Assembly: GCA_046350735.1 (NCBI GenBank)
Contig: JAXLZU010000001.1
Coordinates: 12,530 to 76,529 of the forward strand
Origin: Candidatus Saccharimonadota bacterium
Lineage (GTDB): Bacteria > Patescibacteriota > Saccharimonadia > CAILAD01 > BJGX01
Length of the DNA: 64,000 bases
Reading direction: 5' to 3'
Shown here: positions 2,252 to 17,232 of the stretch, one piece after another
Numbering within the stretch: the first letter of the stretch is position 1
Layout of the letters: each line of letters begins with the position of its first letter
Translations under genes and position numbers: made by a program
The notes under the pieces: generated by a model
What the model was told of the DNA's origin: nothing
The model's database searches: none
What the model saw: the letters and a program-made list of their open reading frames with translations, nothing else

Positions 2252-2309
2252 GTGCTATATCGTAACATAAAAAGAAAAACTCCCTTACCATTATAGTAAG
2301 GGAGTTGAG

Positions 2310-2382
2310 TGGGGCAGGTGGGGATCGAACCCACGACCAAGGCATTATGAGTGCCACGCTCTAACCACTGAGCTACTGCCCC
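2310..2382 (-). tRNA. tRNA-Met (anticodon CAT; elongator-type; Ile-lysidine identity cannot be excluded)
   Basis: Reverse complement GGGGCAGTAGCTCAGTGGTTAGAGCG...CTCATAA...GGGTTCGATCCCCACCTGCCCC folds as a cloverleaf with anticodon loop CTCATAA. G1-C72 pair and no 3xGC anticodon stem, so not initiator-like. Confidence 0.85.
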
Positions 2383-2386
2383 GGTG

Positions 2387-2460
2387 CGCCGGTGGAGGGA
2401 CTCGAACCCACGACCAACAGATTAGAAGTCTGTTGCTCTATCCAACTGAGCTACACCGGC
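2387..2460 (-). tRNA. tRNA-Arg (anticodon TCT)
   Basis: Reverse complement GCCGGTGTAGCTCAGTTGGATAGAGCAACAGACTTCTAATCTGTTGGTCGTGGGTTCGAGTCCCTCCACCGGCG. Anticodon loop CTTCTAA. Confidence 0.85.
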
Positions 2461-2464
2461 TGGG

Positions 2465-2548
2465 TGCCCGCGGTGGGAATCGAACCCACACGCTCTTGCG
2501 AGCCGGGGGGTTTAAGCCCCCTGCGTCTGCCTATTACGCCACGCGGGC
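2465..2548 (-). tRNA. tRNA-Leu (anticodon TAA), long variable arm
   Basis: Reverse complement GCCCGCGTGGCGTAATAGGCAGACGCAGGGGGCTTAAACCCCCCGGCTCGCAAGAGCGTGTGGGTTCGATTCCCACCGCGGGCA. Anticodon loop CTTAAAC. 84 nt. Confidence 0.85.
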
Positions 2549-6696: not shown

Positions 6697-8070
6697 ATGA
6701 AGTTTGATAAAGATATCTTTAAGGCCTACGACATTCGTGGGCTCAGCCCAGAAGAGCTTAGCCCTAAGGTAGCTTTTGCAATAGGGCGCGCCTTCGCCGA
6801 TTTTGTGCCTACTGGCAAAATCGCAGTTGGTAGAGACATGCGCAGCGATTCTGCCGAGCTAGCCGAAGCGCTTATTGCAGGACTACTAAAACAGGGGAGA
6901 GAAGTAATAAATCTAGGGTTAATTACTTCTGATACTATGTATTTTGCAGTAGGATCACTCAAGCTAGCCGGTGGAGCCATGATTACAGCTAGTCATAATC
7001 CTGGTGCCTACGATGGCATTAAACTCACTGGTCTTGGCGTAGTTCCTATTGGTATAGATAGTGGTCTCTTAACTATCGAAGAAGAGATTACAGCTGATAC
7101 ATTTAAGAACGTCTCGCAGTCTGGTACTCTGACAACGCAAGAAATAACAAGCGAATGGATAGAACACGCCCTAAATATTGCCGGCAAAATACATCAACCA
7201 CTTAAGATAGGTATCGATTTTGGCAATGGAATGGCCTCGCTTTATCTTAAAGACCTGCAGGCAAAAACCCCATTACACATAGATTATCTCTACGAAACAC
7301 TCGATGGCACTTTCCCTAACCACGTGGCTAATCCTCTATTGCCAGAAAATACTAAAGATATTCGAAGGCTAGTTAAGAGTAGGCGACTAGAATGCGGTAT
7401 TGCTTTTGATGGTGATGGCGATAGGGCATTCTTTTGTGATGAATCTGGCACAATGCTGAGTGGCAGCGAGCTAGGTGCACTACTGGCAATACATATTTTA
7501 AAGAAGAACCCCGGTGCGACAATTCTCTATAATGCAGTATGCTCGCGTATAGTACCACAAACTATCGAGGTATATGGTGGCAAGGCTATTCGTACAAAGG
7601 TGGGGCACAGTTTTATTAAAGCCGAGATGCGCAAGCATACAGCAGTCTTTGCGTGCGAACACTCTGGACACTTTTATTTTGCCGACAATTACAATGCCGA
7701 TAGTGGCCTCATTGCTGCGTTAATGCTTCTACATGTTCTATCTGCTAGCAAGGAATCTCTTTCTGAAATGGTTGCCCCGCTACGCAATCAGTACATACAA
7801 TCTGGCGAAATTAATATTACCTCAAAAGACATTCCTGCCGATCTTGAGAAAATAAAACAGGCTTTCTCTGATGGCAAAATAGATGAACTCGATGGAATAA
7901 CCATTAACTATCCTCATTACTGGGTAAATGTACGGCCAAGCAATACCGAGCCGCTCTTACGAATAAATATTGAGGCCGAAGACCCTGCTGTACTCGAGAG
8001 TACCAAGCAAAAGATAGAACACTTACTTGCTAAAAAGCCCTTGTCAGAACTTAGTTTGAGCGTACAATAA
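6697..8070 (+). CDS. phosphomannomutase/phosphoglucomutase (alpha-D-phosphohexomutase family)
   Basis: FKAYDIRG N-terminal motif, active-site TASHNPGAYDGIKL, GDGDRAFF metal-binding loop. 457 aa. Confidence 0.85.
   Translation: MKFDKDIFKAYDIRGLSPEELSPKVAFAIGRAFADFVPTGKIAVGRDMRSDSAELAEALIAGLLKQGREVINLGLITSDTMYFAVGSLKLAGGAMITASHNPGAYDGIKLTGLGVVPIGIDSGLLTIEEEITADTFKNVSQSGTLTTQEITSEWIEHALNIAGKIHQPLKIGIDFGNGMASLYLKDLQAKTPLHIDYLYETLDGTFPNHVANPLLPENTKDIRRLVKSRRLECGIAFDGDGDRAFFCDESGTMLSGSELGALLAIHILKKNPGATILYNAVCSRIVPQTIEVYGGKAIRTKVGHSFIKAEMRKHTAVFACEHSGHFYFADNYNADSGLIAALMLLHVLSASKESLSEMVAPLRNQYIQSGEINITSKDIPADLEKIKQAFSDGKIDELDGITINYPHYWVNVRPSNTEPLLRINIEAEDPAVLESTKQKIEHLLAKKPLSELSLSVQ
8041..8068 (+). 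promoter_or_regulatory. sigma70-like promoter TTGTCA-N16-TACAAT embedded in the last codons of the mutase gene
   Basis: ttgtca at 8041-8046 and tacaat at 8063-8068. Would start a transcript at ~8076, exactly where the GC-rich block begins. Confidence 0.45.
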
Positions 8071-8075
8071 CAAGT

Positions 8076-8393
8076 AGCACCTCTCACGTTCTGACCTAAG
8101 AGTCGCAAGGCACACAAACTTGCTCCAACCGGACCTCTCTGGAAGGAGCACCCGCGCGCTAACTGTTGAGTACCCGCACATGACATGCGGCGAAAACGGT
8201 CGGCTCTTAGGTCAACCTTTAGCTGGTGGTGCCACCGCATCCAGTCCCTACATACCACCAGCGTTTCCCGGACCGGCTTCTCCTCCCGCCCATGGTTAGT
8301 CGGTCTGGGAAATTCTTGAGGTAGCAGGGCACTGTTTGGATTCACCTCCCCTCTGTAGGTTAGTCCCGGCAGTGTCCTGCACCTCGGGCCAGC
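8076..8393 (+). ncRNA. GC-rich structured noncoding RNA candidate (~320 nt); identity unresolved (SRP-RNA-like GGAA-tetraloop hairpin noted; RNase P/tmRNA signatures not found)
   Basis: Abrupt GC rise in AT-rich context and no credible ORF. 14-bp long-range helix tgacctaagagtcg (8092-8105) pairs with cggctcttaggtca (8201-8214). Internal hairpins include gcaag-N9-cttgc, ctct-GGAA-ggag (8137-8148) and ccgcacatg-a-catgcgg. Bounded by own promoter and terminator. Confidence 0.45.
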
Positions 8394-8428
8394 GCATCTA
8401 GTCTTCTAGGTGCTTTTTTATTTTTTTG
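8394..8428 (+). terminator. intrinsic terminator ending the GC-rich RNA element
   Basis: gcatctag-tctt-ctaggtgc stem followed by ttttttattttttt. Confidence 0.65.
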
Positions 8429-8535: not shown

Positions 8536-9402
8536 ATGAGTGTCGCTGCTACCGAAAAAAAACTCCGTTCTGCAATTATCTCAGTAATTTGTTATGGTGC
8601 TATTTATGGTGTAGCCTACACCGATAACGAAATTTTGCGCTATATTCCGGTAAAAGCGAGTATTGTTGGTCTTCGCAATCACTTAGCCAGACTACAAAAA
8701 CGCGGTATCATATCTGTCGATAAGCAAGGTAGATACAAGCTAAAAAGCTGTAGTTATCCCCCACAACGCACGCAGCAAAAAAACTGGCAAGAGATAGTGC
8801 ACTCTGCCAAGAAGCACACTCGCCTTCTACGCGCCATACCATTTATTAAGTCTATTGTAGTACTGCCACAAAGTGACGAGCGTAGTATACGTATAGCGGT
8901 TATTGCTTTGCCGGCACGTCTGCATCTTGCCAGGCTCTTGGTAGAAAAGTTTTTTGCCTCTCGCACTCTAGAAAACTCGCAAAAAAAACAAATAGAGGTA
9001 ATTGATACTCTGTATTTTACTACGGCCGGTCTGCGCTTTTTGGATGATTTTGGGTTTTCTGACTTAGACCGTACTGTTTGCCTACTTAATGCCAAGCCTA
9101 TTTTTGGCGAAAAAGTCTGGCAAACAATGCTAGAAAAAAACGACTATATTCGCACCCAATGCCCAAATTATATTTGGGCTCGTAATCATACTGCGGTGTA
9201 CGCCAGTTCTATTCGCTTTCTCGATAGTTACGACGATAAAGCATATAGAGCATTTTTACGTTCCATGGCACGCAAAAAAGAGTACCGCCACGGTGGAGCC
9301 TTACTACGAATTCGGCCCGATGTTATTATTGCCGACCCATATGCCAAAAAGAAAAAGATACTTAGCCAACGCTTTTCTCAGGCCATGCAAAAGGTGAAGT
9401 AA
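8536..9402 (+). CDS. hypothetical protein (288 aa), basic, no recognised family
   Basis: ORF with plausible RBS and codon usage matching the low-GC background. No motif recognised. Confidence 0.4.
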   Translation: MSVAATEKKLRSAIISVICYGAIYGVAYTDNEILRYIPVKASIVGLRNHLARLQKRGIISVDKQGRYKLKSCSYPPQRTQQKNWQEIVHSAKKHTRLLRAIPFIKSIVVLPQSDERSIRIAVIALPARLHLARLLVEKFFASRTLENSQKKQIEVIDTLYFTTAGLRFLDDFGFSDLDRTVCLLNAKPIFGEKVWQTMLEKNDYIRTQCPNYIWARNHTAVYASSIRFLDSYDDKAYRAFLRSMARKKEYRHGGALLRIRPDVIIADPYAKKKKILSQRFSQAMQKVK

Positions 9403-9432
9403 AAAATAATATTATAAAATAGTCAAAAGTTA

Positions 9433-9461
9433 TTGACAAATTTAGTAGGCTGTGCTAGAAT
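9433..9461 (+). promoter_or_regulatory. consensus sigma70 promoter TTGACA-N17-TAGAAT driving the large GC-rich element
   Basis: ttgaca at 9433-9438 and tagaat at 9456-9461. Confidence 0.6.
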
Positions 9462-9467
9462 ACTTGT

Positions 9468-10233
9468 TATCGCTTCGGGAGACCGAAGTGCGCAGCTTGA
9501 CGAAGTAAAGGAAAAAAGTCAAACAATCTTGGGACCGGCCACGTGCCACGGCAAATGCGAAGTCTAAGTGCCACGCTCGTCAGTAGTGTTTCACTGCTGT
9601 CCGGCAGTTCGGCAGTCGTCGCCGGTCTCAAGTGCGGCGGTGGCGGCCAGGTAACCAATCCTGGCGGCCACCGCCCTCGTCCCACCTACAACCCAGATAA
9701 GATGCTAAGGAGGTGATTCCGCCCGACTATTCGAGCCCCTGGCCGCAGGGTTGAGGGGCACGGGGAAAACCCGCACACGCACACGGATGCACACACAGAA
9801 CCGCCCGCCGGCGATCGAGCCGGCTTCGACGAGATACGATCTAACGGGGGAGCAATGATCGGACTTCTCACCAGTTAGCCTAGTCATCTTGCAGTTCTGT
9901 ACTCTGGTGTAGAGCGGTTGCTCTCGCAGTGTACAGAAAGGTGGCCGGGCACCCCTCATGGGGATGATCAGACAGAGAACAGCGTGCCGCGATAACAAAG
10001 GTATAGGCCGGTATGCGGACTTCGGAGGATGCTGAGCGATAAATCATACCGCATCAGCCACCAAAGTCGATACAACGCCCAGAACAGCCTTTGCTCGGCA
10101 TTTAACGCTGTCAGTTCCGTCGTCGCCGGGTGTGGTTCTCCGCCCAGGAGAACCCACCCGGCACGACACGACTTTTACTTCGTCGCTTTTCCAGATAGAT
10201 TAATTTGTTAATACATCTGTAGAAGAATAAAAA
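9468..10233 (+). ncRNA. large (~770 nt) GC-rich, highly structured noncoding RNA candidate upstream of groESL; family unknown
   Basis: No plus-strand ORF of 60 codons or more until a 60-aa GTG-initiated one at 10029..10211, despite high GC. 5' hairpin cttcgg-GAGA-ccgaag (9473-9488, GNRA loop). Closing helix gacgaagtaaa..aagtc (9499-9520) pairs with gacttttacttcgtc (10170-10184). Internal near-perfect 16-bp hairpin at 9636-9675 and 16-bp hairpin at 10126-10161. CA-repeat tract cacgcacacggatgcacacaca. Confidence 0.5.
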
Positions 10234-10255
10234 CACCCGACAAGGGTGTTTTTTG
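10234..10255 (+). terminator. intrinsic terminator of the large GC-rich element
   Basis: cacccgacaagggtg hairpin followed by tttttt. Confidence 0.65.
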
Positions 10256-10305
10256 TTATTTACCCCGTTAGAGTAAATAATTACTATTTCATTAGTCTAT
10301 CGGGG

Positions 10306-10334
10306 TTGACTATATTTTTGTCTCGCTTTACACT
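10306..10334 (+). promoter_or_regulatory. groESL promoter TTGACT-N17-TACACT
   Basis: ttgact at 10306-10311 and tacact at 10329-10334, immediately followed by CIRCE. Confidence 0.55.
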
Positions 10335-10339
10335 AAATA

Positions 10340-10366
10340 TTAGCACTCTCACTATTAGAGTGCTAA
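10340..10366 (+). promoter_or_regulatory. CIRCE operator (HrcA binding site), perfect consensus
   Basis: TTAGCACTC-tcactatta-GAGTGCTAA is an exact 9-N9-9 inverted repeat overlapping the transcription start of groES. Confidence 0.85.
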
Positions 10367-10454: not shown

Positions 10455-12367
<1,913 letters not shown>

Positions 12368-17105: not shown

Positions 17106-17143
17106 ATAAATATTGTACCAGACAAGCAAACTCAATAATGACT

Positions 17144-17232
17144 GGCGGAGAGGGAGGGATTCGAACCCTCGATAGAGTTGCCCCTATACCACCTTTCCAA
17201 GGTGGCGCACTCGGCCACTATGCGACCTCTCC
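17144..17232 (-). tRNA. tRNA-Ser (anticodon GGA), long variable arm, CCA encoded
   Basis: Reverse complement GGAGAGGTCGCATAGTGGCCGAGTGCGCCACCTTGGAAAGGTGG...GGGTTCGAATCCCTCCCTCTCCGCCA. Anticodon loop TTGGAAA. Confidence 0.85.

Follow-up and report, generated by a model that had tools for sequence, protein, structure and literature searches.

Few classes of bacterial non-coding RNA (ncRNA) are longer than 500 nucleotides (nt) and possess complex conserved folds, these being the ribosomal RNAs (rRNAs), RNase P RNA, tmRNA, the group I and II introns, OLE, GOLLD, ROOL and HEARO. Those large classes whose roles have been solved are ribozymes, components of ribonucleoproteins (RNPs) or guide RNAs. 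OLE RNA (RF01071) is approximately 600 nt long, is found in one bacterial group, is non-essential and forms an RNP with dedicated proteins (PMC9723947, PMC12265935), and GOLLD and ROOL build homo-oligomeric assemblies composed of RNA only (PMC12286853). In Candidate Phyla Radiation (CPR) organisms there are no validated small RNAs (bioRxiv 10.1101/2022.03.25.485537). Here we describe an element located directly upstream of groESL at positions 9433-10259 of a 64-kb stretch of DNA (contig JAXLZU010000001.1, positions 12,530 to 76,529; hereafter the window), which exact-protein look-ups and profile searches place, by their record titles, in Candidatus Saccharibacteria. The element is very probably a real structured ncRNA gene of a new and previously undescribed family, known so far only from a subgroup of environmental Candidatus Saccharibacteria. 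Because these genomes are only about 1 Mb in size and no small RNAs have been validated in them, 0.8 kb of strongly promoted non-coding sequence represents a large investment.

In kind the RNA is closest to OLE, GOLLD and ROOL, and in architecture to RNase P RNA. Like OLE, it is a large and highly structured bacterial ncRNA that is conserved in its own right, keeps its junction nucleotides and has a biochemistry yet to be worked out. However, OLE lies within an operon of Oap protein genes in Bacillota, whereas the Saccharibacteria RNA has its own promoter and terminator, matches OLE in neither sequence nor structure, and has no gene for a membrane-protein partner adjoining it. GOLLD and ROOL (RF01998, RF03087) resemble it in their length of 500-800 nt, ornate multi-domain fold, variable periphery and unknown function, but are typically borne by prophages or adjacent to transfer RNA (tRNA) genes, whereas the neighbours here are housekeeping genes (FemAB, TrmB, phosphoglucomutase, the orphan protein p288 and groESL); nor was there a match to their models, or a relative of the Saccharibacteria RNA among phages, plasmids or viruses. 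RNase P RNA (RF00010, RF00011) likewise has a helix pairing its 5' and 3' ends, a conserved core with lineage-specific peripheral helices, a guanine-plus-cytosine (G+C) content that is high for an AT-rich genome, and a gene of its own, complete with promoter and terminator. In contrast to it, the Saccharibacteria RNA is without P4/CR-I/CR-V, has twice the usual length and is missing at the locus in related lineages. The raiA motif RNA and HEARO (the IscB omega RNA) are also large structured bacterial ncRNAs that emerged from comparative genomics, but raiA, of approximately 200 nt, belongs to Bacillota and Actinomycetota, and HEARO accompanies a gene for an IscB nuclease, of which there is none here; neither model matched.

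On the evidence of its sequence signals the whole unit, on the plus strand, is a separate transcription unit that begins with a strong extended -10 promoter of the sigma-70 type and closes with a terminator of its own (Table 1). The initial annotation had pointed to a consensus promoter, an intrinsic terminator and a G+C-rich block in AT-rich DNA, and each was recovered: TTGACA-17-TAGAAT is present where it had been placed and is further extended by a TG at 9453-9454 (TGcTAGAAT, 9453-9461), the terminator consists of a 10-bp stem with a T-run (10229-10253), and the G+C content is 0.555-0.645 over positions 9500-10200 versus 0.40 for the window. A promoter of the form TTGAC(A/T)-17-TGnTAnnAT is found at the equivalent place in all homologues of the large RNA. 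The 5' end of the predicted transcript was placed approximately 7 nt past the -10 box and its 3' end was set within the U-tract. Only three long stretches of the 64 kb that are free of open reading frames (ORFs) have a raised G+C content, namely a tRNA cluster, this element and a block at 8069-8413, and with a value of 0.57 for the tRNA cluster high G+C is also a trait of stable RNAs in this genome. On the minus strand a promoter-like site at 9411-9439 (TTGTCA-17-TATAAT, 11/12) is directed back into the 3' end of p288 and has the palindromic TTGACAA in common with the -35 box of the RNA; it is possibly a chance match in the AT-rich spacer, or else a divergent antisense promoter.

The distribution of the RNA was sampled through p288-linked loci in 15 lineages possessing p288, with scans of the p288 alignment supplying 2 loci from metagenomes and 5 from genomes. 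Gene order at these loci is conserved as FemAB-FemAB-(TrmB)-phosphoglucomutase-[gap1]-p288-[gap2]-groES-groEL, and in 11 of the 15 Saccharibacteria lineages the large RNA occupies gap2, between p288 and groES. Profiles of the element's 5' and 3' ends, run with nhmmer, found a single plus-strand copy in gap2 of the window and of L011, L014, L015, L018, L021, L022 and L027 (homologue E values 1e-13 to 1e-52) and no further match elsewhere in the window or loci, and the RNA-bearing lineages include ones whose p288 is just 31-36% identical to that of the window. In L023, L032 and L038, gap2 also contains an RNA with promoter and terminator, 424-930 nt in length. These three share with the window and L011 the motif GKGRTTCCRCCSGRC followed by a variable hairpin (Ha) and an ACGGG-loop-CCCG hairpin, and they have a similar 3' block as well. 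The motif GKGRTTCCRCCSGRC was found once, on the plus strand, and only in the p288-groES RNAs of those five, with 0.05 matches expected in the window. Since the sequence profile alone gives no link to L023, L032 and L038, we count them as probable members of the family only.

Full-length relatives follow a common outline of a 5'-terminal hairpin (P0), a closing helix (P1; UUGAYGAAGUAAA with UUUUACUUCRUC), internal domains and a last hairpin (P-last), and all except L015, in which P1 is a bulged variant, have a further hairpin before the terminator. The most conserved parts of the RNA are unpaired or junction stretches (GCAACUUGAYGAAGUAAA, GGUCUUGAGGACCGGCCRCG, GGUAACCA, the central GUGAUUCCRCCCGAC and CACAACGCCCAGAA(AGAACC)), the last of which is kept in all full-length relatives. 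A diagnostic set comprising promoter, terminator, P0, P1 (UUGAYGAAGUA/UACUUCRUC), GGUCUUGAGGACCGGCC, CACAACGCCCAGAA and the 3' hairpin is complete in the window, L011, L021, L022 and L027, and L014, L015 and L018 have the available parts of it, some as variants. Around this core the RNA ranges in length from 424 nt (L023) through 556 (L022), 647 (L027), 779 (L011), 793 (window), 841 (L021) and 925 (L015) to 930 nt (L038). The RNAs of L022 (3537-4302) and L027 (4394-5238) are 91.5% identical, yet L027 has an additional 83-nt block contributing a CCUGUAGCCUGUCUGG...CCAGGCAGG hairpin, which appears to take the place of the P2 3' strand and of the GGAGCC hairpin of L022, and which would seem to reflect recent domain swapping within the family. 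An 18-nt block, GGGAGAGAAAAAGAAUCC, is common to L014, L015 and L021, and is not present in the window. Evolution of the family is thus one of a fixed core of junctions and loops, with helices re-sequenced while their pairing is kept and peripheral hairpins gained, lost and swapped.

Folding of the plus strand gave a minimum free energy (MFE) of -340.5 kcal/mol versus -269.6 +/- 6.1 in dinucleotide shuffles (z = -11.6), with z = -8.5 for the reverse strand of the element and z = -14.0 for the L021 homologue. The predicted fold is closed, and runs from P0 through the end-clamping P1 (12-14 bp) and the internal domains to P-last, the 3' hairpin and the terminator. The architecture that had been read from the letters held up well, as the GNRA-capped hairpin, the long-range closing helix and both long hairpins (9636-9675 and 10125-10162) are all in the MFE fold, and what had been called a CA-repeat tract is indeed CA-rich.

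Table 1. Predicted features of the RNA gene and its surroundings, in coordinates of the window.
Feature	Position	Strand	Description and basis
RNA gene promoter	-35 TTGACA 9433-9438; -10 TAGAAT 9456-9461	+	17-nt spacer; scores 11/12 versus consensus
Predicted large ncRNA transcript (RNA2)	9468..10259	+	~790 nt (793); ends from sequence signals
P0	9471..9490	+	5'-terminal hairpin with GNRA (GAGA) cap, cttcgg-GAGA-ccgaag at 9473-9488; MFE
P1 5' strand	9498..9511	+	UGACGAAGUAAAGG of closing helix; pairs with 10172-10185
P2 5' strand	9528..9539	+	CUUGGGACCGGC; pairs with 9621-9632 (MFE); within most conserved 5' block
P2 3' strand	9621..9632	+	GCCGGUCUCAAG; MFE
P3	9636..9675	+	15-bp hairpin, loop motif GGUAACCA at 9650-9657; MFE, homologues
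Central domain	9706..9773	+	Purine-rich UAAGGAGGUGAUUCC 9706-9720; conserved motif GUGAUUCCGCCCGAC 9713-9727
Central-domain hairpins	Ha 9735-9759; Hb 9761-9773	+	Hb CGGGGAAAACCCG; homologue comparison
CA-rich tract	9774-9798	+	Read from sequence
Internal hairpin	9895..9938	+	UUCUGUAC...GUACAGAA; four double compensatory changes versus L011
3' domain	9979..10111	+	Closed by long-range helix 9979-9989 / 10096-10111; five double compensatory changes versus L011
Family-wide conserved motif in 3' domain	10072-10084	+	ACAACGCCCAGAA; homologue comparison
P-last	10119..10167	+	21-bp hairpin directly 5' of P1 3' strand; two compensatory changes versus L011
P1 3' strand	10172..10185	+	CUUUUACUUCGUCG; MFE, alignment
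3' hairpin	10186..10225	+	CUUUUCCAGAU...AUCUGUAGAAG, between P1 and terminator; 15 pairs, 96% paired
Intrinsic terminator	10229..10259	+	10-bp stem 10229-10253, then U-tract; counterpart in every full-length homologue
groES promoter	10306-10334		TTGACT-17-TACACT
CIRCE operator	10340-10366		Perfect, TTAGCACTC-N9-GAGTGCTAA
groES gene	10455-10724		
p288 gene	8536-9402		Orphan 288-aa winged-helix protein
Second structured RNA candidate	8041-8419	+	~345 nt (8069-8413), G+C 0.59, ORF-poor; between phosphoglucomutase and p288
Second RNA promoter and terminator	8041-8068; 8394-8419	+	Promoter TTGTCA-16-TACAAT
tRNA-Met, tRNA-Arg, tRNA-Leu cluster	2309-2548	-	Rfam / ARAGORN
tRNA-Ser	17143-17232	-	Rfam / ARAGORN

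Comparison of the helices among relatives shows pairing that is kept through compensatory changes. All 12 pairs of P1 are 100% paired across five lineages, with C-G changed to U-A in L022 and L027, and with A-U changed to C-G in L015. In the five-lineage alignment 97.8% of the cells of P1 and the 3' hairpin are paired, a value that falls to 38-53% once the 3' partners are displaced by 1-3 columns. In these two helices three pairs have changed on both sides: one in P1 (C-G to U-A) and two in the 3' hairpin (A-U to U-A; U-A to C-G), this hairpin being kept in L011, L021, L022 and L027. In P3, 8 of 15 pairs changed on both sides in a four-sequence alignment, the stems being wholly unlike in sequence with 15-19 bp kept, while the loop GGUAACCA is invariant in the window, L011, L014, L015, L018 and L021. 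The same replacement of stem sequence with retention of the hairpin is seen at P0, where every homologue has a different stem (6-12 bp) and mostly GNRA-type loops (GAGA, GAAA, GCAA), and at P-last, where L011, L015, L021, L022 and L027 have hairpins of unrelated sequence (6-24 bp). P2, the 5' strand of which lies in a block reading GGUCUUGAGGACCGGCCRCG in relatives, is retained with 1-2 mismatches in L018, L021 and L022, and has lost its 3' strand in L027.

Mapping the MFE pairs of the window onto L011, its closest distinct relative (84% identical), revealed 12 double compensatory changes versus 2.2 +/- 1.3 expected (maximum of 8 in 1000 reshuffles), the expectation being obtained by reshuffling the same substitutions among the paired positions. 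Three hairpins (9579-9601, 9895-9938 and 10134-10154) and the 3' domain (9979-10111) account for the 12 changes, and a comparison of L032 with L038 gave 8 such changes versus 2.1 expected. The G-U pairs in P1, P2, P3 and the 3' hairpin fit the plus strand only which, together with the direction of promoter and terminator, fixes the plus strand as that of the RNA. Homologues in other Saccharibacteria thus occupy the equivalent site, retain promoter, terminator and junction sequences, and show compensatory changes in their helices. This supports the first of the readings in the initial annotation, in which the element is a large, ornate and new ncRNA possessing a promoter and a terminator of its own.

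Several points weigh against this interpretation. Covariation was measured as helix-level counts and pairwise reshuffling over approximately 8-11 lineages, 28 of the 49 MFE pairs that vary between the window and L011 are broken, and the helices in the middle of the molecule come from single-sequence MFE folds. Aligned with MAFFT, P3, P0 and the central domain did not come out structurally consistent, and for this reason helices were read one by one and our own scripts were used in place of covariance models. Given the few lineages, the inconsistent alignments and the broken pairs, the interior of the model is provisional and the detailed structure is right only in part. A profile hidden Markov model of the central-domain sequence gave E = 0.66 for L023 and no match for L032. 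Four of the 15 lineages (L017/L020, L024-26, L029-31 and L034-37) have a gap2 of 150-210 nt without the RNA, which is therefore dispensable or located elsewhere in them. Finally, the data indicate no specific biochemical activity or partner.

The alternative that the element is a protein-coding gene in decay, or high-G+C DNA acquired from a host Actinobacterium, scarcely merits credence. Its high G+C within a 40% G+C genome and an ORF of 97 amino acids (aa) on the minus strand, the longest on that strand, could be taken in its favour. On the plus strand, however, the ORFs are of 44, 57 and 60 aa only; the initial annotation had named a single frame of 60 aa on this strand, but this frame, at 10029-10211, begins with ATG and not with the GTG given there. 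None of the six longest ORFs of the element matched a Pfam family at E <= 1, substitutions between the window and L011 are spread 47/37/37 over the three codon phases, and 10 of 12 insertions and deletions (indels) are not multiples of three (2 are). By these measures the element is not translated sequence and has no codon periodicity, and the suggestion of a decayed high-G+C gene is rejected. The retention of promoter, terminator and helices, the last with compensatory changes, likewise contradicts decay. A recent origin from the host fares no better, as the element has been inherited at a single syntenic site across deep Saccharibacteria lineages in which the flanking protein is at 29-37% identity. 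A 13-codon GUG-initiated frame at 9713-9754 on the plus strand (MIPPDYSSPWPQG) overlaps the conserved central motif and has counterparts in L011 (MIPPDCSSPWPQG), L023 (MIPPDT*) and L032 (MVPPGN*). Two of the three variable positions of the motif are third codon positions of this frame, and PPD and PPG are stalling motifs that depend on elongation factor P. The frame has poor Shine-Dalgarno spacing and start context and is absent in half of the family, with L014, L015 and L021 among those without it, for which reasons we did not adopt this mini-ORF (MIPPD...) as an explanation; an RNA motif has probably produced it by coincidence.

Rfam 15 (4227 families) was searched at three stringencies, ranging from the gathering score to E <= 10, with queries that included 2.7 kb around the element, the 806-nt element by itself and 13 related loci. 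At the gathering score only four tRNAs were found in the 64-kb window, where ARAGORN also found 4 tRNAs and no tmRNA, and at E <= 10 the 2.7 kb and the 806-nt element gave nothing believable, the top matches being terminator look-alikes. No family was matched by the homologues in the 13 related loci. The comparison with Rfam that had been called for therefore connects the element to no known family, whether RNase P, tmRNA, signal recognition particle (SRP) RNA, 6S RNA, OLE, GOLLD, ROOL, HEARO or raiA, and full-text searches of PubMed Central and bioRxiv turned up no account of such a structured RNA in Saccharibacteria or the CPR.

It is highly improbable that the RNA is instead a very divergent and enlarged housekeeping RNA (RNase P, tmRNA, SRP or 6S RNA) missed by the Rfam models. 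A closing helix and a multi-domain fold with variable periphery would also fit RNase P, the 64 kb, itself a small fraction of the genome, yielded no housekeeping RNA besides tRNAs, and the hairpin CCAGGUAACCAAUCCUGG is reminiscent of GCCAGGUAACGCCUGG in E. coli M1 RNA. Yet neither the element nor its homologues matched RF00010 or RF00011 at the gathering score or at E <= 10, and with filters relaxed the models of SRP RNA, 6S RNA and tmRNA likewise gave no match at E <= 10. Among the blocks that the family conserves there are neither the P4 strands of RNase P, for which the consensus is GAGGAAAGUCC... in CR-I and ACAGAA..GGCUUA in CR-V, nor a tRNA-like domain with tag frame as in tmRNA, nor the SRP domain IV motif. 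A segment at 9937-9954 that had been said to recall CR-I weakly is not conserved in L014, L015 and L021, and that resemblance is set aside. The absence of the RNA at the locus in 4 of 15 lineages would also be unexpected of an essential RNA.

Presence and absence at one site among related lineages, and the exchange of peripheral domains between close relatives (the 83-nt indel of L022/L027), could also speak for an RNA of mobile or defence type, be it of the guide, omega-like or retron-like kind, the remnant of an intron, or an ornate RNA carried by phages in the manner of GOLLD or ROOL. We consider this very unlikely, as there is no adjoining nuclease, reverse transcriptase, integrase or transposase, the RNA is single copy at each locus, and empty sites are without target-site duplication. 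The OLE, GOLLD, ROOL, HEARO and raiA models gave no match in the window or the 13 related loci (E <= 0.1-10), nor did the Rfam models of group I and II introns, and the RNA interrupts no gene. Comparison by blastn ("distant" mode) with 50,697 phage and 72,556 plasmid records found no similarity. When viral contigs were scanned for exact copies of three motifs of the family, there were 0, 26 and 4 matches, on the order expected by chance, none of which extended past the motif in nhmmer.

The location of the RNA raises the question of whether it acts on groESL. Where present it always lies directly upstream of groES, and in most lineages the U-tract of the terminator ends 6-9 nt from the groES -35 box, a configuration in which regulated terminator read-through, or transcriptional interference at the groES promoter, would make it a cis-acting element of groESL. 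This reading we judge to be distinctly improbable. A strong terminator is followed by a full groES promoter and an operator known as the controlling inverted repeat of chaperone expression (CIRCE), and lineages share the TTTGTTTATGC-TTGACT groES promoter and CIRCE whether or not they have the RNA, for which reason we read the RNA as an independent gene. Moreover, a conserved multi-domain structure of 500-900 nt far exceeds the need of any known leader. In the window a 43-nt hairpin (CCCCGUUAGAG...CUAUCGGGG, 10263-10305) also parts the terminator from the groES -35 box. In the initial alignment this hairpin is absent from L011 and L015, and in other relatives only the 6-9 nt mentioned above separate terminator and -35 box. 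The element had been described as lying upstream of groESL, and its position is as described, but it is not part of the design of the groESL transcript; the simplest explanation of its conserved place beside groES is that the locus has a common ancestry. The CIRCE operator would imply HrcA-type heat-shock control of groES, and a tblastn search of the 64 kb with an approximate B. subtilis HrcA query matched no HrcA-like ORF.

If the element is indeed an ncRNA gene of a new family, the chances that it works in trans as a scaffold or ribozyme are in our estimation about even. Its strong promoter, protected ends, end-clamping helix, conserved junctions and modular periphery suggest an abundant, stable structural or catalytic RNA that would act in trans. 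A fixed core with a modular periphery is the pattern expected of RNAs that function through their three-dimensional shape (ribozymes, RNP scaffolds or RNA-only scaffolds), and would place the RNA alongside RNase P, the group I and II introns, OLE, ROOL and GOLLD rather than with base-pairing small RNAs or mRNA leaders. Its function is presumably accessory and not essential, because related lineages are without it at the locus. The natural size series of 424-930 nt marks out core versus dispensable periphery, and thereby makes the family a good target for cryo-electron microscopy, for chemical probing and for the study of RNA functions retained by epibiotic bacteria.

The RNA may work with a protein, for which the adjoining p288 is the sole candidate in view. 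This protein has 31 relatives among 5.8 billion proteins and matched nothing in Pfam, NCBIfam, PADLOC or PDB sequences, and its best whole-domain matches are transcription regulators including HrcA (1stz). Between phosphoglucomutase and p288 lies the block at 8069-8413 (Table 1), a second unknown structured RNA, which together with the orphan protein broadens the target presented by the locus. It folds with an MFE z = -7.3 and matched no Rfam family even at E <= 10. Relatives of this gap1 RNA, likewise without an Rfam match, are present in L011, L014, L015, L017, L021, L022, L024, L027 and L034 and absent beside p288 in L023, L029, L032 and L038. They occur in a form of approximately 340 nt (window, L011, L014 and the first block of L022), a form of approximately 520 nt (L015, L021, L027 and the second block of L022) and a variant in L017/L024, L022 having two RNAs in tandem. 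Most start with 5' GCACCU..UCUGACC, and all but L034 have an ACCUCC-like sequence in the loop of the last hairpin.

It is conceivable, though we regard it as unlikely, that the large RNA is the RNA of an RNP with p288, perhaps including the second RNA, so that a three-gene module would stand beside groESL; this is a more specific version of our preferred explanation and not its opposite. On the other side, L029-L031 have p288 with neither RNA adjoining, the two RNAs are independent of one another (L017, L024 and L034 have the upstream RNA only and L023, L032 and L038 the downstream RNA only), and winged-helix domains are mostly DNA-binding. Judging by its best matches, p288 may simply regulate groESL. 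A further reading, speculative and in our view rather doubtful, would make the RNA a large ribozyme of a new kind, or an RNA or RNP machine that assembles itself, peculiar to this ultrasmall epibiotic clade and maybe working with the second RNA and p288. It would mean an RNA-centred module of three genes by the chaperonin operon in genomes of approximately 1 Mb that otherwise shed non-essential DNA.

The upstream RNA has two C/U-rich loops, CUCCUCCC (8280-8287) and GGAUUCACCUCCCC (8338-8351), that resemble the anti-Shine-Dalgarno sequence (16S 3' end, GGAUCACCUCCUUA). In the large RNA, the purine-rich UAAGGAGGUGAUUCC could pair over 14 consecutive positions (one G-U) with the conserved 3' tail of 16S rRNA, and is complementary at 11 of 12 positions to GGAUUCACCUCC, which forms a loop in the upstream RNA (8338-8349). 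A role for UAAGGAGGUGAUUCC as a sponge for the 16S tail or for CCUCC loops was not adopted, given that its exact sequence is not conserved in L014, L015 and L021 and that it is predicted to pair internally, with CCACCU (9683-9687) in the MFE fold; the purine-rich character of 9706-9720 is conserved.

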